Shown piece by piece: positions 20 through 14,210 of a stretch of 14,210 nt of DNA. Every line of letters starts with the position of its first letter. Positions within the stretch are counted from its first letter, which is position 1. A program made the position numbers and the translations under genes. Below the pieces are notes generated by a model. It was not told where the DNA came from. It was given only the letters and a program-made list of their open reading frames with translations, and searched no databases. Origin of the DNA: a virus (taxonomy: Duplodnaviria > Heunggongvirae > Uroviricota > Caudoviricetes); the IMG/VR virus record IMGVR_UViG_648276652_000020; one strand, 5' to 3'.

Positions 20-1315
20 TTAATTTTTCATTGCTTCGTTATGGGGCATGGTTGGGGCAAACTCGCTTAACTGTGTATTTAACAAAGCTACCTGTGCATT
101 ATTGTTTTCAGACATCCATTTTCCGTATACCTGAAATACCATTTGCGCATCTGCATGGCCCATCTGGTTTGCTATAAATGCCGGGTTAGCACCAGCTGTC
201 AGCGACCAGCAGGCATAAGTATGTCTCGACTGATATGATTTTCGATGGCGGAGCCCGGCACGTTTTATCGCTGCGTCCCACATCTGCCTTATTGAGTCAA
301 CGGTAAAATGGTCACCATAATTTTTTACTCTCGCTGACACTTCAGGTTGAAAAACAAAGGTGCATTTTTGTTTTTCTGTTCTGCCATACTCTCTGAGGTG
401 AACATCAATGATATGCTCTTTGCTCAGTCTCGTTAATGTCATCTGACTCCGGAGAGCGTCGATTGCTGGCTTAATAAGATGAATGACCCGATTGGTTCCC
501 GCCTGTGTTTTTGGTACCGTGAAACGGTCTTTTGCTAAATTTCTCCTGATCATCATTGTTCCATTTTTCAGATCTATGTCCTCCCATCCAAGTGCACACA
601 GCTCACCAGGGCGAACGCCAGTATAAACAGAAACACACCATAAATTTTTTGCTTGCTGATTTCTGCACGCATCGATAAGACGGATAAATTCCTCCCGCGA
701 AAGAGGATCCGGAATGGTTCTTGATTCCTTTAATGGCGAGATCCCCTTAAACGGATTATCTGCCAGGTAACCGTTATCAACACCAAACTGGAACACGGCG
801 TTAAGATTTGTCATGTAATTATTTACAGTCACAGCCGATCTCCCTGGTTGTGTAACAATATAGTTACTTTTGGGGATCTGGTATCCAGTCAGTAGCTCTT
901 TACGAACCTCCAGTAATTTTTCTTTATTAATCGATGAGGCAAGATTTTTTTCACCGATTATGCTCAGGATATTTTTGATGACGGCACGGTATGTGTTGAG
1001 TGATGTTTTGGCGACTTCAGTTTCTTTCAGTGCCAGAAATTTTTCAGCCAGTTCTTTTATGGTTAAATCTTGTCGGGCCTCACCAAATTTTTCCAGATTG
1101 CGTGAGGAGGGAAACTGTTTTGCATAGTCGAAAACACCAGTTTTTATTGCGTAACAAACAGAGGAGCGTAGTTCACCTGCAACGCGCCTGTTTTTTGTTG
1201 TGTCAGGAACCCCCAGATTTTCCCTGACTCTTACGCCTTTATAAACAAACCAGATACGTAATTTCCCTCCATGGTTTTCCACGCCTGTCGGATATTTCAT
1301 TTCAACTTCTCTCAT
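20..1315 (-). CDS. int: Prophage tyrosine integrase (lambda/Rac-family site-specific recombinase)
   Basis: 431-aa ORF. C-terminal region carries tyrosine-recombinase-type motifs (VYTGVRPGEL; HRKSYQSRHTYACWSL; VFQVYGKW). Sits at the prophage edge next to an excisionase-like gene. The internal Met at 1300 (MKYPTG...) is an alternative start with a GAGAG SD-like sequence upstream. Confidence 0.9.
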   Translation of the reverse strand: MREVEMKYPTGVENHGGKLRIWFVYKGVRVRENLGVPDTTKNRRVAGELRSSVCYAIKTGVFDYAKQFPSSRNLEKFGEARQDLTIKELAEKFLALKETEVAKTSLNTYRAVIKNILSIIGEKNLASSINKEKLLEVRKELLTGYQIPKSNYIVTQPGRSAVTVNNYMTNLNAVFQFGVDNGYLADNPFKGISPLKESRTIPDPLSREEFIRLIDACRNQQAKNLWCVSVYTGVRPGELCALGWEDIDLKNGTMMIRRNLAKDRFTVPKTQAGTNRVIHLIKPAIDALRSQMTLTRLSKEHIIDVHLREYGRTEKQKCTFVFQPEVSARVKNYGDHFTVDSIRQMWDAAIKRAGLRHRKSYQSRHTYACWSLTAGANPAFIANQMGHADAQMVFQVYGKWMSENNNAQVALLNTQLSEFAPTMPHNEAMKN

Positions 1316-1334
1316 TAGTTAGTGTGGCTTTTAG

Positions 1335-1585
1335 TCAAGTAAGATGACGTCTTGGTCTCGCTGATGCCTGGCGCTCAATCCAGCGATCAATTTCTTCCAG
1401 GTTGTAAAAGCATGGACTGTTATCCCATGGCATACCGTCATGAGCGACATGCTTATATTCCCTTCCTTCCATAAACGATTTTTCCCGGGCCTTTTTTAAC
1501 GTACCTTTTTTATTCCTTTCAGCGCAATTAACTGCTCTTCGGATACCCATTTGCCGGGAGAGACAATCATGATTACTTCGCTCAT
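1335..1585 (-). CDS. xis: Excisionase-like small DNA-binding protein (lambda Xis-like), split across two frames at an A_AAA_AAG heptamer; programmed -1 frameshift, pseudogene or homopolymer error
   Basis: Frame A (1585->1496) encodes MSEVIMIVSPGKWVSEEQLIALKGIKKVR*. The -1 frame continues from the heptamer at 1505-1511 as ...KKGTLKKAREKSFMEGREYKHVAHDGMPWDNSPCFYNLEEIDRWIERQ... to 1335. The fused ~83-aa product has a W in the N-terminal helix and an hydrophobic-EGREY-x-H motif resembling lambda Xis (KDGREYLFHE). Lies between int and the exonuclease gene. Confidence 0.5.
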
Positions 1586-1657: not shown

Positions 1658-4129
1658 TTAAGAATCAGCCTGACTCGGGATAAGTTTTTGCCAGATAACT
1701 GAAACGTATTTTGCCTGGTAACGGGCGTCATCAAGTGCATTATGGCGCTCACCTTCGAATGGAATAGCCGTTCTGGCATCGAAGTCTATGGCTTTCCCCA
1801 GCTCAACGATTGTGCGTACATCGCGATCGTTGTAGTAACGCCACGGGCAGGGGATCCCCTGCCGTTCGTATGAACGGCGCAAAATCGTGTTGTCGAAGTT
1901 GGCTCCATTTCCCCAAACCTGAACAAAAAATTCACCGGAGTTTTCGTCGATAAATTCCCGCAATTGTAATAGTGCATCATCTAACGGGATTTCATCGGTC
2001 ATAATGGCAGATTGCGCTTCGCGTGATTGCTTAAGCCACCATTTAATGGTGTCCCGATCAATGACTCCGCCAGCAGTTTCCAGATCGATAGTCTTACTAA
2101 ATTCCGGTCCCATATCTCCGGTTTGCGGATCGAAAAATATTGCACCTATTGAGATGATCGGGGCATCAGGATTTTTTCCCATGGTTTCAAGGTCGATCAT
2201 TAGATGGTCACACGTCCTGCTGGTGGATGTGATAACGTGATGACCGTTCACCGTAATTAAGGGATCTGCCGTCTCGCCAGTTTCACTATCGCTGGCGTGG
2301 TCCTGAGCGCTGCCAGCATTCCCCTTGTGTGGATGTTCAGCGCCTTCCATTTTCTCCGAATCGTCTTCCTGAACTTCAACCTGGTTCTTGTCATCGAATG
2401 TTTCCTGGTATGTTGCGTCGCCCATCACCGCACCACAATCATGGCAGTTGCCGCCACCGCTCTGACCGCAGGCGGTGCAGATCTTTTTCGGTTCCTGTTG
2501 CACTACTGGTTCAGGTTGTTTCGTTTCTGGCTCGTTTTGTTGCGTATTTGGGCTGTTTTGTTCCGCTTTCTGATCGTTCTGTTCCGTTTCTTGCTGGTTC
2601 TGGTTCACAGAATCGCGGGTTTCAATCCCCTTTACCCATTCCGGATCATTCGGATCGCTAATCCCTGCAACAAATTCACCGCGTGATACTGCAAGCAGTT
2701 CATCGGTGTCAGGCTGGCTGATATTGGCTGCCTGCATAATTTTGTTTACTTCGTCAGCGGTAACTTTTACCGGCCCTGGTTGTGCGGTCGTGTCAGATGC
2801 ACCAGTATTTTGTTGTGAACCTGAGTATGTACCGTTTTTGCGGGCGAAATATTCTTCTTTCGTGATTTCAGTAGCCCCGGCAGCCAGTGCCTTATCCAGA
2901 CCAGAAAGTTTGTTTGCGCGACCGTATTTTTCGCCATCCTTGTCGGTGAAGAGGAAGTAGAACGGCCCCTCACGCTCTACAGATGGTTCGACTTCCACTT
3001 TGCATTCGGTTTTTTCGTTGTCCGGAATTGCCGTTTCCACTGCATCAGTTTCTGGTACTGGCGACGAGAGAGTATCAGTTGCGCTCTGATTTCTTCCTTC
3101 ATCTTCAAACACGCCCTTTGTAGTCAGGTATTCAGTAATGTATTTGTTCAGTGCCACAGGGTCTTTGTGAATGTCGATCGGACGTTCACGGACAAGGCCA
3201 AAAATAGTCTGGCGGTCGTAGCGAAGGGCATCAGGCTGTTTGCGCATTGATGCCGAGATACGCTTCCAGTCTTCGCGGTCGTTGTCGATAACTTCATTTT
3301 TTGCCCAGCGATGGATGCTGCCGTCAATGTTTCCGGCATCCACATCACCAGGCCAGAGAGCGTAGGCCAGTTCGTCATCCAGTGTTTTCCATGTCTGCTT
3401 GTATTCGCGATGAGTGGCAGCAATGACCGGGCTGATTTTTCCTGTTGAATTGTCAGTGTACTGTTGATTGGCTCTGGCGCGGGCGAGATCAACAACAGAC
3501 GTGTATTTTCCGGTTTCCTTGCGTTCACCTTCGCGACGTTTTTTCCAGATGCGCATCTCTGCCTGAATTTCGGGCCATTTAGCACCAGGAATACATTTAT
3601 GCTTAACCCACCCAATGGCGTGCAACTTAAGCTCCGGATACATGGCGTTAACTTCTGGCATTTTCATCAACGCTTCAACGATATGTCCGTCGAATGTTGC
3701 CATGTCTTCCTGCAACAATTCCTGTGCGCTAATAACCATATCAACGGTGATGTTTTCACATGTGTCGAACTTAACCAGGACCGCGTTCTGTACTTCAGGG
3801 GACAGCTTGTCAAAATTGACGTTCATCGGATCGGATTCTGGTTCGACCGGAATAAAGGAAGCGGATTCCTCATCCCAGCAGTTTTCCTGCATATATTCGG
3901 TATCCCAGGAGTCGATGGCAGGGCGGGGCATGCCGGGTTTATCCTCGCAAACAAGAAATTTATAAGCGCAGTCCTGAGCAGCCGGATATTGCTCCAGGAA
4001 TTGCCAGGTAAATTTGGCTCGGGCGCGGCGTTCGTCGCCGGCTTCAATGGCAGTGGCTACAGCGACTGCACCTTCTTCCTTTATTGCCTGTTCGTCCGGA
4101 ATGGCGGCGCAAATAAAGACTTTACTCAT
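1658..4129 (-). CDS. Prophage exonuclease, 823 aa, with C-terminal DEDDh (DnaQ-like) 3'-5' exonuclease domain (the kind often annotated exodeoxyribonuclease VIII-like)
   Basis: C-terminal domain shows the three DEDDh motifs: Exo I MIDLETMG, Exo II VWGNGANFDNTIL, Exo III ERHNALDDARYQ. The middle is an acidic/Q-rich low-complexity linker with a Cys cluster CTACGQSGGGNCHDCG. Start codon at 4127-4129 has GAGG 10 nt upstream. Confidence 0.85.
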   Translation of the reverse strand: MSKVFICAAIPDEQAIKEEGAVAVATAIEAGDERRARAKFTWQFLEQYPAAQDCAYKFLVCEDKPGMPRPAIDSWDTEYMQENCWDEESASFIPVEPESDPMNVNFDKLSPEVQNAVLVKFDTCENITVDMVISAQELLQEDMATFDGHIVEALMKMPEVNAMYPELKLHAIGWVKHKCIPGAKWPEIQAEMRIWKKRREGERKETGKYTSVVDLARARANQQYTDNSTGKISPVIAATHREYKQTWKTLDDELAYALWPGDVDAGNIDGSIHRWAKNEVIDNDREDWKRISASMRKQPDALRYDRQTIFGLVRERPIDIHKDPVALNKYITEYLTTKGVFEDEGRNQSATDTLSSPVPETDAVETAIPDNEKTECKVEVEPSVEREGPFYFLFTDKDGEKYGRANKLSGLDKALAAGATEITKEEYFARKNGTYSGSQQNTGASDTTAQPGPVKVTADEVNKIMQAANISQPDTDELLAVSRGEFVAGISDPNDPEWVKGIETRDSVNQNQQETEQNDQKAEQNSPNTQQNEPETKQPEPVVQQEPKKICTACGQSGGGNCHDCGAVMGDATYQETFDDKNQVEVQEDDSEKMEGAEHPHKGNAGSAQDHASDSETGETADPLITVNGHHVITSTSRTCDHLMIDLETMGKNPDAPIISIGAIFFDPQTGDMGPEFSKTIDLETAGGVIDRDTIKWWLKQSREAQSAIMTDEIPLDDALLQLREFIDENSGEFFVQVWGNGANFDNTILRRSYERQGIPCPWRYYNDRDVRTIVELGKAIDFDARTAIPFEGERHNALDDARYQAKYVSVIWQKLIPSQADS

Positions 4130-4209: not shown

Positions 4210-4413
4210 TTACGGTGCTGTTTTAAGTCCTGCCGGGATTTCGTTATTGTCCATGCGAATAACTTTCTCAACCGGATAACAGTTGCCGGGAATTTTCTGT
4301 TCCGCTGCGGCAGCCATGCATTCTTTCATTGAGTCATGTATACCAATAACAAGATCAACTGGCTCGCCCGTATTAAGAAAAACCGTCAGAACGAGTGCAA
4401 ATGTTGTATTCAT
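4210..4413 (-). CDS. Hypothetical small protein (67 aa from the internal Met; ORF extends to 4467)
   Basis: Start at 4413 has AGGA 8 nt upstream and forms an ATGA start/stop overlap with the upstream ORF (plus 4410-4413). N-terminus is hydrophobic (MNTTFALVLTVFL). No family recognised. Confidence 0.5.
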   Translation of the reverse strand: MNTTFALVLTVFLNTGEPVDLVIGIHDSMKECMAAAAEQKIPGNCYPVEKVIRMDNNEIPAGLKTAP

Positions 4414-4598
4414 TGCCAGTATCCTTTTTGCATCAGACGTAAACGGGCCAGCATTGATACAATGCATATTTGATTTAATAGCTCCCGTTCGTGTTTTCTC
4501 TTATTAATGGCATCTTCAGTAAATACAGGGTTACTGATTCTGACACCAATTTCAAAACAACCTTCAGACGTATTAACGTTTGGTAATAACGTTTCCAT
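4410..4598 (-). CDS. Hypothetical small protein (63 aa; a longer GTG-initiated version would reach 4694)
   Basis: ATG at 4596-4598 preceded by GAGGA at 7-nt spacing. Stop overlaps the start of the next gene (ATGA), suggesting translational coupling. No family recognised. Confidence 0.45.
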   Translation of the reverse strand: METLLPNVNTSEGCFEIGVRISNPVFTEDAINKRKHERELLNQICIVSMLARLRLMQKGYWQ

Positions 4599-4615
4599 TA
4601 TCGCATCCTCAACAA

Positions 4616-4777
4616 TGAATTTTGTGATGCGGTGCCTGGTGCCTCCAGGTGACGTTAACCAGTTAATAATTAACGCCGGATACAGAGAACCCACCCATAA
4701 GAACCAATACGGAAGTCAACTGGCCTTTTTAACTGTTCCGCGTGCGCTGAGCCGCATTCACCGCATCACAAAATTCA
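4616..4777. repeat. Perfect 19-bp inverted repeat (tgaattttgtgatgcggtg at 4616-4634; caccgcatcacaaaattca at 4759-4777) separated by 124 bp
   Basis: Read directly from the sequence; arms are exact reverse complements. The 3' arm on the minus-strand transcript ends about 3 nt before the SD of the 4598 gene. The spacer contains further small palindromes (cctgg-tgcct-ccagg; gttaac; ttaataattaa). Confidence 0.8.
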
Positions 4778-4778
4778 C

Positions 4779-4827
4779 TTTAAAAAGGGCGGGTATCACA
4801 AGGGAAAACAAAAAACGGATACCCGCC
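4779..4827 (-). terminator. Candidate intrinsic terminator-like hairpin on the minus strand (10-bp GC-rich stem, 20-nt loop, then CUUUUUAAAG)
   Basis: Stem ggcgggtatc (4788-4797) pairs with gatacccgcc (4818-4827). On the minus strand the stem is followed by a T5 run (rc of 4779-4787). The loop is unusually long, so efficiency is uncertain. Confidence 0.3.
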
Positions 4828-5174
4828 AAAAGGTAATCAACATGGGTTGTTGCAGCGGGGTTGTCACTTAAGCGTATGGTCAACCTGACAACCCGGTGCC
4901 ACTAATGGGGTAAGAATAACCCCGCCATACTTACCGCCGCGCCATTTCGAGGATTGCCACAACCGGAAGCGCACAGACGAAGATGTCAGTGGTACACAAC
5001 AAAGGGAGGAATGACTTCGCCGTGCGCTTTCGCGTTATGCCCTGACTTTTCAGGGATATATCCTTTCAGTAAACTGTTTGTGCCGGATTCTTATCCGTGT
5101 CCGGCGCACGACCACGCGCTGTCACGTGTGGTCTCCATTCTCAACCAGTAACCTCAATGGAGGATAAAATTAAA

Positions 5175-5474
5175 ATGGTCAGCAAACTAAATCAGACTCG
5201 CTGGAAGATTCATTATGAAACAGCGCGTTTAAATTATATTCTTGAATGTTTTGGGGATAACCTTGCTGCTGAGGAAGGCTATCCAAACCATGTCGATGGT
5301 TTCGAAGCGATATATCTTTATCTATCCCGTAAACATGGATGGACTATTTCACAGTGTCGTTTAATGCCACTGGATGATATTCGCCTTGCTCTTTCGTTAG
5401 AGCTATCAGGGTGGCGACTCCCTGATGATGCAAAGATTGACGACCATCATTCTCACGATGATATAAGTTGTTAA
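5175..5474 (+). CDS. Hypothetical protein (~99 aa) encoded opposite to the surrounding leftward operon
   Basis: ATG at 5175 preceded by GGAGGA (5159-5164). Translation has balanced composition (MVSKLNQTRWKIHYETARLNYILECFGDNLAAEEGYPNHVDGFEAIYLYLSRKHGW...). Its 3' end overlaps the convergent minus-strand ORF by 131 bp, so one of the two may be mis-called. Confidence 0.45.
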   Translation: MVSKLNQTRWKIHYETARLNYILECFGDNLAAEEGYPNHVDGFEAIYLYLSRKHGWTISQCRLMPLDDIRLALSLELSGWRLPDDAKIDDHHSHDDISC

Positions 5475-5733
5475 GTTCCAGTAGTTTGGCTTTTGCAATG
5501 ACCTCTACAGATTTCCAGAATTTGTGGGGGTCTGTACTCTCTTCCTGTTCGTCAGGAATGTTATTGTCCTCAACAGAAACAGAATACAGTCCGGTAAACG
5601 CATCGCGCACATTACGAGCCATATTATCAATGTCTTTTTTCGTTTCAGCTTCTAATGCAACTTCGTTCAGACGTTGACGAAGTGTATGTGCTGCAATTTC
5701 TTGGATTTCTTTTGGTAACTCTTTAAATTCCAT
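5344..5733 (-). CDS. Hypothetical protein (129 aa from Met at 5733; ORF extends to 5745)
   Basis: GAGG SD 6 nt upstream of the ATG at 5731-5733. The upstream gene's TGA stop overlaps an in-frame ATG (plus 5743-5747). N-terminal two-thirds is charged and helical-looking (MEFKELPKEIQEIAAHTLRQRLNEVALEAETKKDIDNMARNV...). Confidence 0.55.
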   Translation of the reverse strand: MEFKELPKEIQEIAAHTLRQRLNEVALEAETKKDIDNMARNVRDAFTGLYSVSVEDNNIPDEQEESTDPHKFWKSVEVIAKAKLLELNNLYHRENDGRQSLHHQGVATLIALTKEQGEYHPVALNDTVK

Positions 5734-5744
5734 AGTCAACCTCA

Positions 5745-5978
5745 TCAGTCAGTGTTTCTGGCTAACCAGCGATGCGCGCCAGTTTCGGTTTTAAACGTTT
5801 TGCTTTTGGTATACGTCATCGCGGTGAATGTGCCGTCCTGGTTGGAAAACACGCCGTACACCAGAGATTCGTTGTTGCCAAGATCGATAGTATCCATGCT
5901 GACCTCATTTCCCCTTAACGCCGGGGTAGCGGAACAAAAACCTGCTGCATAGTTATTAAAGTTGAACCCTGCCGTCAT
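5745..5978 (-). CDS. Hypothetical small protein (77 aa; alternative start at 5897 gives 50 aa), first gene of the leftward operon next to the repressor
   Basis: ATG at 5976-5978 has GAGG 7 nt upstream; the internal ATG at 5897 also has an SD. Lies directly downstream of the candidate leftward promoter. No family recognised. Confidence 0.55.
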   Translation of the reverse strand: MTAGFNFNNYAAGFCSATPALRGNEVSMDTIDLGNNESLVYGVFSNQDGTFTAMTYTKSKTFKTETGAHRWLARNTD

Positions 5979-8753: not shown

Positions 8754-9176
8754 GTGGCAAAAGTTTTTACACAAGAAGAGCGGGAAAAAATTAAAGGGCA
8801 GGTTCTTGAACTCGTACGCCAGAGTGGGCGCGAGACGTTACGACAACTGGAAGCTAAAACTGGGGCAACAAGATATCTGATGAGCGTTCTGGCCAGAGAG
8901 CTGGTTGCCAGTGGCGATGTATACAATTCTGGCTACGGGTTATTCCCGTCTGAACAGGCTCGTAAAGACTGGCAAAATGCCCGCAAAAAATTATCGAGGG
9001 CAAAGCTGAAGAAACCGGTTGTGGTTGATCCGGACCTTATCTGGTCATTACCTGACGGAGAAATACGTCGCTACGACAGTCGCCTAAACATAATCTGTCG
9101 CGAGTGCCGGAAGAGCGAAGTTATGCAGCGCATATTGTCGTTTTATCAGGGGGATGTTCGGTATTTATTGAAGTGA
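8754..9176 (+). CDS. Hypothetical protein (140 aa), last gene of the replication-side operon before the prophage ends
   Basis: GTG start at 8754 with AGGAGGG upstream. No Walker A motif, so not a DnaC/P-type helicase loader. N-terminal region may be a winged-helix-like fold. Function unknown. Confidence 0.5.
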   Translation: MAKVFTQEEREKIKGQVLELVRQSGRETLRQLEAKTGATRYLMSVLARELVASGDVYNSGYGLFPSEQARKDWQNARKKLSRAKLKKPVVVDPDLIWSLPDGEIRRYDSRLNIICRECRKSEVMQRILSFYQGDVRYLLK

Positions 9177-9510
9177 CGAGATTAAAGTGCATTAGTTCAG
9201 ATGCAAATTGACATTTTGTGGCACAGGGTAGAGCTAGCGTGGTTGTCCGCTTTGTGCCAAGAGCAGACGCTGGTAATTCGTGCCTAATATACTTCACTTA
9301 ACTTATATCCCAGCTTTGATACAGATCATACAAATTAAATGCCCCAGTAATTGGCAGGCTGAGTAACTTAAAACTCCTTAGAATATAGGATGATTTGTAT
9401 CGGCACTCATTCCACCATGCATTCCGATTAACCCCGCATAGCCAGTTGAACTTTGCTACTCTGTGAGAGGTAGTACCTTCTATCCAGTGCGGATTTAATT
9501 AATGGAATAA

Positions 9511-11514
9511 ATGATTATGAGTGAAAATGATACAACCCCAAAGAAGTCTACAAGCCAGATTAACAAAGCGGTATTCTTTACATCTGCTTTGCTAATTTTC
9601 CTTCTTGTCGCCTTTGCCGCCGTATTCCCGGATGTCGCCGACAAAAATTTTAAACTACTTCAGCAACAAATCTTCACGAATGCCAGCTGGTTCTACATAC
9701 TTGCTGTGGCCCTGATTTTACTGAGCGTCACGTTCCTTGGACTCTCACGTTACGGTGATATAAAGCTGGGCCCAGACCATGCGCAGCCTGATTTCAGCTA
9801 CCACTCCTGGTTCGCGATGCTTTTTTCGGCAGGGATGGGGATCGGCCTGATGTTCTTTGGCGTTGCCGAACCTGTGATGCATTATCTTTCGCCACCTGTC
9901 GGCACTCCAGAGACCGTTGCGGCAGCGAAGGAAGCCATGCGCCTGACGTTCTTCCACTGGGGTCTGCACGCATGGGCAATTTATGCCATCGTGGCGCTGA
10001 TTCTGGCCTTTTTCAGTTACCGTCACGGTCTGCCTTTAACGCTGCGTTCTGCGCTCTATCCCATTATCGGCGATCGCATTTACGGGCCTATAGGCCACGC
10101 GGTTGATATCTTCGCCGTGATAGGCACTGTCTTTGGCGTTGCAACATCGCTGGGTTACGGTGTATTGCAGGTGAATGCCGGTTTGAACCATCTTTTCGGC
10201 GTGCCCATCAATGAAACGGTACAGGTCATTTTGATCGTGGTCATCACGGGGTTAGCGACGATTTCGGTGGTGTCCGGCCTGGACAAGGGAATACGCATCC
10301 TGTCTGAGCTTAATCTGGGCCTGGCGGTGTTGCTCCTGGCGCTGGTCTTGTGCCTGGGTCCCACTGTGCTTCTGCTGAAGTCATTTGTGGAAAATACGGG
10401 TGGTTATCTGTCGGAACTGGTGAGTAAAACGTTCAACCTTTACGCGTATGAACCCAAGTCGAGCAACTGGCTGGGGGGCTGGACATTATTATACTGGGGA
10501 TGGTGGCTTTCATGGTCGCCGTTTGTAGGTATGTTCATTGCACGCGTTTCCCGCGGCAGGACAATTCGTGAGTTCGTGACTGGCGTGTTGTTTGTTCCCG
10601 CCGGCTTTACGCTCATGTGGATGACGGTGTTTGGAAACAGCGCCATCTATCTCATCATGAACCAGGGCGCCACTGACCTCGCCAATACCGTTCAGCAGGA
10701 TGTTGCGCTTGCCCTGTTTAATTTCCTGGAGCATTTCCCGTTCTCTTCCGTGCTGTCATTCATTGCAATGGCGATGGTCATCGTCTTCTTTGTAACGTCT
10801 GCTGATTCGGGGGCAATGGTTGTGGATACTCTGGCATCAGGTGGGGTGGCAAACACGCCCGTCTGGCAGCGAATTTTCTGGGCATCGCTCATGGGCGTTG
10901 TTGCTATTGCCCTGCTGATCGCAGGGGGGCTGAGTGCGTTGCAAACCGTAACGATAGCGAGTGCATTGCCCTTCTCAGTTATCTTATTAATATCCATATA
11001 CGGACTGTTAAAAGCCCTGCGTCGGGATTTGACCAAGCGTGAAAGCCTTAGCATGGCGACTATTGCTCCTACGGCTGCACGTAACCCAATTCCCTGGCAG
11101 AGAAGGTTACGCAATATCGCGTATTTGCCGAAGCGCTCTCTTGTGAAACGTTTTATGGACGACATTATCCAACCCGCCATGACGCTGGTTCAGGAGGAAC
11201 TTAACAAGCAGGGAACGATAAGCCACATCAGTGACGCCGCCGAGGATCGTATTCGCCTTGAAGTCGATTTGGGCAACGAGCTGAATTATATATATGAAGT
11301 GAGGCTTCGCGGGTATAACTCACCGACCTTCGCGCTCGCTGCGCTGGATAATGATGAGCAGCAGAGTGAACAACATCGATATTATCGCGCTGAAGTCTAT
11401 CTCAAAGAGGGCGGCCAAAATTATGATGTAATGGGCTGGAATCAGGAACAGCTGATTAATGACATACTGGACCAGTACGAAAAACACCTGCACTTCCTGC
11501 ATCTGGTTCGTTAA
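9511..11514 (+). CDS. BCCT-family transporter, BetT-like (choline/glycine betaine/osmolyte uptake)
   Basis: 667 aa. BCCT signature WTLLYWGWWLSWSPFVGMFIARVSRGRTIREF. Multiple transmembrane segments and a long cytoplasmic C-terminal extension ending ...INDILDQYEKHLHFLHL, closely resembling the E. coli BetT C-terminus. Start at 9511 or 9517; the SD is weak. Confidence 0.93.
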   Translation: MIMSENDTTPKKSTSQINKAVFFTSALLIFLLVAFAAVFPDVADKNFKLLQQQIFTNASWFYILAVALILLSVTFLGLSRYGDIKLGPDHAQPDFSYHSWFAMLFSAGMGIGLMFFGVAEPVMHYLSPPVGTPETVAAAKEAMRLTFFHWGLHAWAIYAIVALILAFFSYRHGLPLTLRSALYPIIGDRIYGPIGHAVDIFAVIGTVFGVATSLGYGVLQVNAGLNHLFGVPINETVQVILIVVITGLATISVVSGLDKGIRILSELNLGLAVLLLALVLCLGPTVLLLKSFVENTGGYLSELVSKTFNLYAYEPKSSNWLGGWTLLYWGWWLSWSPFVGMFIARVSRGRTIREFVTGVLFVPAGFTLMWMTVFGNSAIYLIMNQGATDLANTVQQDVALALFNFLEHFPFSSVLSFIAMAMVIVFFVTSADSGAMVVDTLASGGVANTPVWQRIFWASLMGVVAIALLIAGGLSALQTVTIASALPFSVILLISIYGLLKALRRDLTKRESLSMATIAPTAARNPIPWQRRLRNIAYLPKRSLVKRFMDDIIQPAMTLVQEELNKQGTISHISDAAEDRIRLEVDLGNELNYIYEVRLRGYNSPTFALAALDNDEQQSEQHRYYRAEVYLKEGGQNYDVMGWNQEQLINDILDQYEKHLHFLHLVR

Positions 11515-11521
11515 CAGCAAC

Positions 11522-11550
11522 ATGCCGCCACAGAGGCGGCATTTATTTAT
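11522..11550 (+). terminator. Rho-independent terminator downstream of the BetT-like gene
   Basis: Stem atgccgcc (11522-11529), loop acaga, stem ggcggcat (11535-11542), then ttatttat. Confidence 0.7.
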
Positions 11551-11577
11551 CCCGGCTGCAATATGAGGGAATGCAGA

Positions 11578-12855
11578 ATGATTTCACGCTGGAAATGGAT
11601 GCTGAAGCAGACATTTAAAAAACTATGGTTCAGGGCAACGTTATTCGCAATTGTCGCAATAATAACGGCCCTTTTATCAATTCTTTTTAAATCAATGATA
11701 CCTGAGTCGGTTTCCGTGAAGGTTGGTGCGGAAGCAGTCGATAACATTCTGAACATACTGGCATCGAGTATGCTGGCAGTGACCACATTTTCGCTGAGCA
11801 TCATGGTCACAGCCTACGGTTCAGCCACTACTAATGTGACTCCCAGAGCTACTCGTTTAGTTGTTGAAGACGTCACCACACAAAATGTACTGGCCACCTT
11901 CATCGGTTCTTTTCTCTTCAGTCTGGTAGGGATTATTGCCCTCAATATGGGAGCTTATGGAGAAAGGGGGAGAGTCATTTTATTCATTGTAACACTGGTT
12001 GTCATTGCCTTAATCCTCATCACATTGCTTCGCTGGATACAGCATTTGACCTCTCTGGGGAGGGTTGGTGAGACAACGGCAAAAGTAGAACAGGCGGCCA
12101 TCGAAACATTTATTGCGAGAGCAAGAAATCCCTGTCTCGGCGGATATCCATGGCTTGAGAACAATGAACAGCCGAAAGGAACGGTTGCAGTTTATCCGAA
12201 AAAGATTGGCTATGTTGAATATGTTGATATGGTGAAACTCAGCAAGCTGCTGACCAATGATCCCCGTCATGTATACCTCGTGGCGCAGCCGGGCAGTTTC
12301 ATACATCCGTCCACGCCAGTTTTGTACCTGAGTCAGGGCCAGGAGTCATCAATCAGCACCGATTTACTTGAGACGATTATTGTCTCGGATGTACGTTCAT
12401 TTGCTCAGGACCCCCGATTTTGTCTTAGCGTCATGGCCGAAATAGCCTGCCGAGCCCTTTCCCCCGCAGTGAACGATCCTGGAACCGCCATTGATGTCAT
12501 TGGCAGAGGTGTACGTATACTTTCCGCTTACGCGCAGAATAAATCTGATGAAATAGAAGTGAAATATCCTTCTGTACATGTTGCACCACTTCAGAATAAC
12601 GATCTACTTGAAGACTTTTTCTCACCTGTTGCGCGCGATGGTGCCAGTATGAGGGAAATTCAGATAAGGGTACTTAAAGGACTGTCGATGCTGAGTAAGG
12701 GTTGGCCTGGAATTTTTGCTGAAGCCGCACAAACCCTAGCATTTGAAACATTAGAGCATGCTACTCGTGCTGACCATATAGATTCTGACAGATATCTAAT
12801 AAAATCAATTTATTATAATTTATTTAGTGGCGAAGATTCTAATAAAAAACCATAG
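11578..12855 (+). CDS. Putative membrane protein, possibly DUF2254-like (from memory), with N-terminal TM helices and a large soluble domain
   Basis: ATG 11578 with GAGGGA 6 nt upstream (the track starts at 11563). N-terminal hydrophobic segments (LFAIVAIITALLSILF; FIGSFLFSLVGIIALNMG; ILFIVTLVVIALILITLL). Motif CRALSPAVNDPGTAIDVIG is what I associate with DUF2254. Family assignment is from memory only. Confidence 0.65.
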   Translation: MISRWKWMLKQTFKKLWFRATLFAIVAIITALLSILFKSMIPESVSVKVGAEAVDNILNILASSMLAVTTFSLSIMVTAYGSATTNVTPRATRLVVEDVTTQNVLATFIGSFLFSLVGIIALNMGAYGERGRVILFIVTLVVIALILITLLRWIQHLTSLGRVGETTAKVEQAAIETFIARARNPCLGGYPWLENNEQPKGTVAVYPKKIGYVEYVDMVKLSKLLTNDPRHVYLVAQPGSFIHPSTPVLYLSQGQESSISTDLLETIIVSDVRSFAQDPRFCLSVMAEIACRALSPAVNDPGTAIDVIGRGVRILSAYAQNKSDEIEVKYPSVHVAPLQNNDLLEDFFSPVARDGASMREIQIRVLKGLSMLSKGWPGIFAEAAQTLAFETLEHATRADHIDSDRYLIKSIYYNLFSGEDSNKKP

Positions 12856-12985
12856 TTGCGGAGCAAGCGATACGGTTGTTGGCAAGTCAAGGGCAAAGCA
12901 TTCGCGTGAGAGTGGGCGTCTGCTTTGTGCCAGAAGCGGACATACGTAACTTATGATACGCATCGCCAATCATCCGTTTCAAACA

Positions 12986-14210
<1,225 letters not shown>

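Follow-up and report, generated by a model that had tools for sequence, protein, structure and literature searches.

A frame break at an A_AAA_AAG heptamer in a prophage excisionase gene is probably a one-adenine deletion and not a programmed frameshift site

Background

When the reading frame of a gene breaks at a heptamer on which ribosomes are prone to slip, it has to be asked whether the break is a programmed recoding site, a lesion in the DNA or an error of sequencing. Runs of adenines attract polymerase slippage as well as sequencing errors, and ribosomes slip on them too. A break of this kind is present in an excisionase-like gene (xis) in the 14,210-nt stretch of viral DNA analysed here (IMG/VR record IMGVR_UViG_648276652_000020), which as a whole is referred to as the window. 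An earlier note, made from the sequence alone, had described the gene as split over two frames at an in-frame A_AAA_AAG and had offered three explanations, namely programmed frameshifting that sets the dosage of Xis, a mutation that inactivated the gene of a cryptic prophage, or a homopolymer error in sequencing; if homologues encoded this protein without a frame break and with an A-run of another length, a mutation or an error would be indicated. The heptamer A_AAA_AAG is among the most shift-prone of Escherichia coli when stimulators are present (PMC4066793), and it occurs in the same register in dnaX, where it is flanked by a Shine-Dalgarno-like stimulator upstream and a hairpin downstream (PMC3711429).

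Methods

Two nucleotide queries were used to follow the locus through complete E. coli genomes. The first, comprising 361 nt around xis, gave matches in 2,662 of 5,426 genomes; for the second, a 146-nt core, the locus was counted where at least 80% of the core was matched, which was the case in 2,574 complete genomes. The length of the A-run was read in 17 loci, IMG/VR contigs were scanned with exact patterns and the predicted products were looked up as exact proteins. Pfam matches to DUF1233 were judged against a score cut-off of 22 bits, and folding energies and heptamer counts were compared with those of shuffled sequences.

Results

Prophage context of the xis gene

Directly downstream of xis lies an intact tyrosine integrase gene (int; 20..1315, minus strand) with the Pfam domains Arm-DNA-bind_2 and Phage_integrase, the start of which corresponds in RefSeq relatives to the ATG at 1300 (426 aa). 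With its stop at 1335, the int start at 1300 or 1315, both genes on the same strand and both at the end of the prophage, xis has the neighbourhood of the Xis family, and in the E. coli relatives int abuts rspB. Upstream of xis an intact exonuclease gene (1658..4129, minus strand; 823 aa) is found with a C-terminal Rv2179c-like 3'-5' exonuclease domain and a length, 2472 nt, that is the same in relatives. Further prophage genes follow beyond it, encoding DUF1482, DicB (4410..4694, minus strand), DUF1391, an S24 repressor, a P22-Cro-like protein, YdaT and, as the last of the early region, DUF977 (8754..9176), as well as a 133-aa ORF (5344..5745, minus strand) without Pfam match. Because of this gene content and of the position of rspB beside int in the relatives, the window reads as the early-left arm of a Qin-like lambdoid prophage. 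Next to the early region come three genes whose products are a BCCT transporter (9511..11514), a DUF2254 protein (11563..12855) and a LysR regulator (12986..13867). The window shows no phage late genes, and this points to a prophage that has been truncated or to cargo genes. Among complete E. coli genomes none matched the window over its full length, the best match extending over 86% of it at 96.4% identity.

Some observations on the window stand apart from the xis gene. The part carrying the BCCT, DUF2254 and LysR genes (9200-13970) is 99.2% identical, without gaps, to several E. coli chromosomes, and positions ~4700-5340 differ strongly from TK3889, whose prophage is similar elsewhere. DicF did not reach the Rfam gathering score anywhere in the window, though DicB is present. 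The int-xis-exonuclease module also occurs in complete phages of 45-49 kb.

The xis gene is divided over two frames that meet at the heptamer

On the minus strand, ORF-A (1585..1496) encodes 29 aa, MSEVIMIVSPGKWVSEEQLIALKGIKKVR, an N-terminal xis fragment consisting of 27 native residues, V, R and a stop. ORF-B (1550..1335, stop codon 1337..1335) encodes 71 aa in the -1 frame relative to ORF-A; its first 15 codons are an out-of-frame reading of the N-terminal part of xis, and alignment to single-frame homologues places the native coding part at 1505..1338, corresponding to G28-T83 of intact Xis. Codons 25-27 of ORF-A are ATA (1513-1511), AAA (1510-1508) and AAG (1507-1505), so that, as had been noted earlier, the heptamer A_AAA_AAG (1511..1505) stands in the X_XXY_YYZ register of the upstream frame, which after it reads the sense codons GTA CGT and then ends at its third codon, TAA (1498-1496). 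With ATA AAA AAG at 1513..1505 and ORF-B in the -1 frame, the locus has the slippery heptamer of a dnaX- or IS3-type programmed -1 site. A -1 slip would yield an 83-aa protein, MSEVIMIVSPGKWVSEEQLIALKGIKK joined to GTLKKAREKSFMEGREYKHVAHDGMPWDNSPCFYNLEEIDRWIERQASARPRRHLT, which includes the EGREY motif and restores the wild-type residues K26-K27-G28 exactly; the Glu-C peptide expected across the junction of this trans-frame product is QLIALKGIKKGTLKKARE. The sequence AAAAAAG as such is not unusual in the window, where it was counted 4 times against 4.4 expected from shuffles. Neither promoter-like nor terminator-like signals for a separate expression of ORF-B were found between 1200 and 1800, and no Shine-Dalgarno sequence was seen by eye before its ATG at 1550.

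The second A_AAA_AAG that the earlier note had pointed out lies, as described there, 14 nt downstream (start to start) and in the new frame (1497..1491, minus strand), where TTA AAA AAG encodes L30-K31-K32 of Xis in the C-terminal xis frame. It is probably an incidental outcome of AAA-rich lysine codons, since other genera lack it and have CTA, TTG or CTG followed by AAG AAG. This second heptamer is in the xis-frame register in all intact E. coli alleles too, and a -1 slip on it would lead, after 12 codons (AAA AAA GGC ... ATA TAA), to a TAA and hence to a truncated product of ~44 aa. A 39-aa ORF at 1450..1331 was considered as the -1 continuation from the second heptamer and rejected, its frame being that of ORF-A, +1 relative to xis. 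This +1 frame is open for ~55 codons past the TAA of ORF-A, from 1495 to 1331 (minus strand). A database protein, P0066, is another frameshift variant in which xis runs into the +1 frame (…KSFMEGNISMSLMTVCHGITVH…), and therefore further indel alleles of xis are in circulation.

The two ORFs encode the halves of one excisionase domain

Against Pfam DUF1233 (PF06806, 'putative excisionase'), the 83-aa fusion covers model positions 1-69 of 70 with 108 bits, while on their own ORF-A matches positions 1-23 and ORF-B positions 22-69. Given these complementary ranges, the two ORFs are the two halves of one domain, which bears out the earlier description of an Xis-like gene split over two frames, with a -1 shift leading to the complete protein. 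The family profile matches PDB entry 2KVV ('putative excisionase', NMR, K. pneumoniae) over residues 7-72 (E 2e-6), and the same entry is the best structural match (TM 0.61/0.65) of an AlphaFold (AF2) model of the 83-aa product with a mean pLDDT of 73, the next being the phage P2 DNA-binding protein 4LHF. The AF2 model has strands at residues 13-15, 44-46 and 59-62 and helices at 16-23, 29-36 and 63-75, and together with 2KVV it indicates one compact domain of residues 7-73; with moderate confidence, Xis is thus predicted to adopt the small winged-helix-type fold of the solved DUF1233 members. In this model the break at residue 27/28 would sit between helix 1 (16-23) and helix 2 (29-36) of the winged-helix DNA-binding domain, and ORF-A would comprise strand 1 (13-15) and helix 1 only. 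Because the break separates the first two helices, neither fragment alone should fold, bind DNA or give a working protein. No NCBIfam model exists for this Xis or for XisR.

The closest relative studied by experiment is XisR (YdaQ, b1346), encoded by the Rac prophage of E. coli K-12 and shown there to bind attR and to promote excision (PMC4632033). It is likewise small and encoded immediately upstream of a tyrosine integrase, and it aligns with residues 12-71 of the window's Xis at 26% identity (pairwise E 2e-5); its 71 codons, however, form a single frame without an A-run at the equivalent position. The idea that ORF-B, also of 71 aa, is the counterpart of XisR and shares with it the same split was therefore rejected, the equal length being coincidental.

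Seven adenines are the rule in E. coli, phages and IMG/VR

Among 40 matches of the 361-nt query sampled evenly down the ranking, 34 were one base longer than the window (362 versus 361 nt), equal length was seen in the top match only, and the remainder were partial matches or divergent alleles. Only nine of the 2,574 genomes bearing the locus (~0.35%) were identical to the window over the 146-nt core, and the next 51 matches listed (99.3% identity) were all 1 nt longer. In alignment the majority allele reads ATA AAA AAA GGT (A7) and forms a single ORF of 252 nt, annotated as 'excisionase family protein' WP_000005552.1. This intact protein of 83 aa, found in Qin-like prophages beside rspB and in four phages, is the conceptual -1 product of the window, and its gene stands in the same int-xis-exonuclease order. 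The nearest intact allele, that of HB-Coli0, aligns over 285 nt of xis and flanks without mismatch and with one gap, which is the missing A. The window thus carries six adenines (A6; 1511..1506, minus strand) where the intact allele has seven, a 1-nt contraction that constitutes the lesion, causes the gene to be read as two ORFs and has the heptamer as its product. A 91%-identical allele (CU37RT-2) reads ATA AAA AAG GGA and is single-frame without the A7 run.

Four complete phages with genomes of 45-49 kb, PhiR42_1, HannyBb, mEp460_ev081 and Tritos, carry the A7 allele, 1 nt longer and with a single ORF. Exact-pattern scans of IMG/VR retrieved A6 in 2 contigs, one of which (L024) is IAI39-like, A7 in at least 120 and A8 in 1, and by exact look-up the 83-aa product was present in at least 1000 contigs, the 71-aa ORF-B product in 21 and the 29-aa ORF-A product in 16. 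Near-identical intact orthologues, then, differ only in run length, the broken allele is rare and polyphyletic, and the opposite length variant occurs as well; such rare contractions (A6) and expansions (A8) have the signature of homopolymer indels. Homologues encoding Xis in one frame with a run of different length, which the earlier note had named as evidence against its own leading proposal, are accordingly what was found (A7 in nearly all of the ~2,570 E. coli genomes, in the four phages and in at least 120 IMG/VR contigs). As a side observation, a 22.9-kb contig labelled as a Veillonella parvula MAG (L007, JAGZPX010000007.1) encodes an 83-aa xis product identical to the E. coli protein and is almost certainly an Escherichia contig that was mis-binned.

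The A6 allele occurs on several backgrounds

A6 is no new feature, as RefSeq already lists identical alleles as frameshifted pseudogenes: in nine of nine A6 E. coli genomes (IAI39, CE10, AR_0013, N32, AF57, 190, MSHS 472, O157:H7 Z1814 and ET791) xis is entered as 'xisR, excisionase family protein, frameshifted', with 146 nt identical to the window. These nine genomes are spread over at least four backgrounds. IAI39, CE10, AR_0013, N32 and AF57 have in common an exonuclease gene truncated by IS629 and one integrase allele, from which it follows that the deletion is real and inherited in DNA at least there. Strain 190 represents a separate background in which several neighbouring genes are also 'frameshifted', in MSHS 472 the exonuclease gene is deleted, the integrase of O157:H7 Z1814 is 7% divergent, and in ET791 int, xis and the exonuclease gene are all frameshifted. 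The haplotypes around the pseudogenes differ from that of the window, for instance in the exonuclease gene, which carries IS629 in the IAI39 group and is intact here. The haplotype of the window resembles neither the IAI39 group nor any other A6 genome more closely than it resembles A7 genomes, and for this genome there is accordingly no case for an inherited A6.

The A6 lesion was also seen in Shigella flexneri SFBU0723 (L013, 1501-1746), where xis has further indels, int shows 18 gap positions and the exonuclease part shows 7; either this prophage has decayed heavily or the assembly is noisy.

Distant homologues are single-frame and lack the heptamer

Full-length relatives with 63-86% identity were found in Cronobacter, Klebsiella, Lelliottia, Silvania, Leclercia, Raoultella and Scandinavium. 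They are 83-94 aa long and single-frame, and keep ALKGIKKGTLKKARE across the junction. At the first site their DNA reads ATT AAA AAG GGG, ATC AAA AAG GGG, TTG AAA GAA GGA or CTG AAG GAA GGC, with AAA AAG GGG in Leclercia and Raoultella, and at the second site CTA, TTG or CTG followed by AAG AAG, or TTA AAG AAC. In the DNA of the Leclercia, Raoultella, Silvania and Scandinavium homologues no X_XXY_YYZ heptamer was present at either site. Across the E. coli genomes, the four phages, the at least 120 IMG/VR contigs and the other genera, the two-frame layout with its heptamer was not conserved.

Stimulatory elements and residual slippage

The 80 nt past the heptamer fold with -10.1 kcal/mol, compared to -14.9 ± 2.7 for shuffles (z = +1.76), which gives no sign of a stimulatory 3' structure, and this fold has no RNA stem in the 15 nt next to the heptamer. 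The stimulatory Shine-Dalgarno sequence of dnaX is spaced ~10-14 nt 5' of the slippery site; no such sequence at the right spacing precedes the heptamer in xis, where the sole candidate, AAAGGA, ends 2 nt before it. An Rfam scan of the whole window brought no family to its gathering score, and neither the supplements to Sharma et al. 2014 nor the text of the GeneTack paper mention a recoding cluster for an excisionase, ydaQ or DUF1233.

Some slippage may nevertheless occur. In reporters, heptamers without stimulators shift at 2-10 times a background of 0.055% (PMC4066793), and non-programmed suppression of single-base deletions in E. coli amounts in aggregate to 1-10%, including slippage at A_AAA_AAG in lambda cI (PMC10861913). 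Compensatory frameshifting at indels has been reviewed as a class by Atkins et al. (PMC5009743). It is thus plausible that the A6 allele gives a low but non-zero amount of intact Xis by incidental -1 slippage, at a level that we would place between a fraction of a percent and a few percent of ribosomes, and which, considering the 25-60% frameshifting that one study reported for C_AAA_AAA in the over-expression vector pDEST17 (PMC1851650), could be larger than assumed. Such a leak would be an unselected by-product and not a regulatory device.

Discussion

The coincidence that makes this locus look like a recoding site, i.e. the frame break falling exactly at a heptamer, is not due to chance, because removing any A from ATA AAA AAA GGT must yield ATA AAA AAG GT. 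We consider it probable that the window carries a genuine, recent one-A deletion of a recurrent type in an ordinary single-frame xis gene of 83 codons belonging to a Qin-like prophage. Replication slippage would have dropped one A from the A7 run, converting ATA AAA AAA GGT to ATA AAA AAG GT; the resulting frameshift would divide xis between helix 1 and helix 2 and leave both ORFs nonfunctional alone; and since the lesion falls within a lysine-codon A-run, an in-frame A_AAA_AAG would be left behind automatically, on which a minority of ribosomes could slip by -1 and produce exact wild-type Xis at a low level. We take the deletion to be one of the DNA itself and not of its read-out alone. The main competitor of such a deletion is the possible, though on balance doubtful, case of a sequencing or assembly artefact, in which the strain would truly be A7 with an intact xis and one A was lost in the chemistry or in the consensus step. 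The overwhelming majority of A7 alleles, the single base by which the xis region differs from the nearest A7 haplotype, the standing of homopolymer runs as the classic place for indel errors, the clustering of frameshifts in some assemblies with A6 records (strain 190, ET791 and S. flexneri SFBU0723) and the existence of an A8 variant all agree with it. General sequencing noise is disfavoured relative to a real change by the alignment of the window to TK3889, which extends over 6.8 kb at 99.2% identity with zero gaps, so without any other homopolymer indel in the conserved parts, and by the intactness of the other large ORFs; A6 is, moreover, demonstrably real elsewhere, in five independently sequenced genomes that have an IS629 insertion in common. 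Of the explanations in the earlier note, it is thus the two held in reserve, an inactivating mutation in a cryptic prophage and a homopolymer sequencing error, that the evidence supports.

Readings in which the split is selected or programmed appear improbable even when all are taken together. Programmed frameshifting as in dnaX, by which the ratio of 29-aa to 83-aa product and hence the excision frequency would be set, can draw on the correct register of a heptamer that is shift-prone in combination with stimulators (PMC4066793), on a shifted product that is a complete DUF1233 domain and on the existence of frameshift-controlled excision activators such as FseA of a symbiosis island, which depends on +1 frameshifting (PMC5009743). 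The dnaX signal, however, is conserved across genera and truncates its protein, whereas a shift in xis would restore it, and the xis site comes without stimulator and without conservation. The two-frame allele is limited to ~0.35% of the locus-bearing E. coli genomes and scattered over unrelated backgrounds, complete phages and, without exception, the distant homologues lack the arrangement, neither a downstream structure nor a correctly spaced Shine-Dalgarno sequence accompanies it, and the 29-aa product is, judging from the model, a domain fragment without a plausible role. The proposal that frameshifting sets Xis dosage therefore has to be given up as hardly credible. It is also very unlikely that A7 and A6 are the states of a reversible phase variation between excision-proficient and excision-locked or low-Xis prophages, with the heptamer supplying basal Xis in the OFF state. 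The repeated origin of A6 on different backgrounds, the occurrence of A8 and an OFF allele that would in principle suppress itself are what one would expect of such a switch; but a run of 7 nt is short for a contingency locus, length variants are very rare and in several cases go along with other prophage decay (IS629 in the exonuclease gene, the exonuclease deletion of MSHS472, the S. flexneri indels), and the run is not maintained, as CU37RT-2 has AAA AAG GGA and Leclercia and Raoultella have AAA AAG GGG. Equally improbable is the related reading that the A6 'pseudogene' yields wild-type Xis at ~1-10% dosage, as a selected low-excision state that can be reversed by slippage from A6 to A7; if true, it would represent a homopolymer switch the OFF state of which is buffered by ribosomal slippage.

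As a deletion, the A6 allele would belong with other systems in which a one-base lesion is leakily suppressed. In deletion mutants of lambda cI at A_AAA_AAG a 1-nt deletion at a slippery run is likewise followed by a minority of ribosomes regaining the frame (PMC10861913), and C_AAA_AAA in pDEST17 (PMC1851650) and indels in the G7-run of herpesvirus thymidine kinase (PMC5009743) are of the same class. In xis the slipped product would be exactly wild-type, and the leak is here expected by analogy. Lesions in A-runs may in this way suppress themselves, the slipped product being the wild-type protein, and 'pseudogene' calls at A-runs may therefore understate residual function.

As one more frameshifted gene in a prophage remnant, the locus carries little biological weight. 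It is of use as a calibration case for genome scans, in which a frame break at a perfect in-frame A_AAA_AAG will resemble recoding: because any one-base loss from a lysine-codon A7 creates the heptamer, the motif has no evidential weight unless the split and its stimulators are conserved. The insertion in the exonuclease gene of the IAI39 group (L015-L017, L021 and L022; locus positions 43-1428) is an IS629 element of the IS3 family, the transposase of which is annotated with a programmed frameshift and an 'AL1L pseudoknot', so that a true recoding site is found ~1 kb from the false one.
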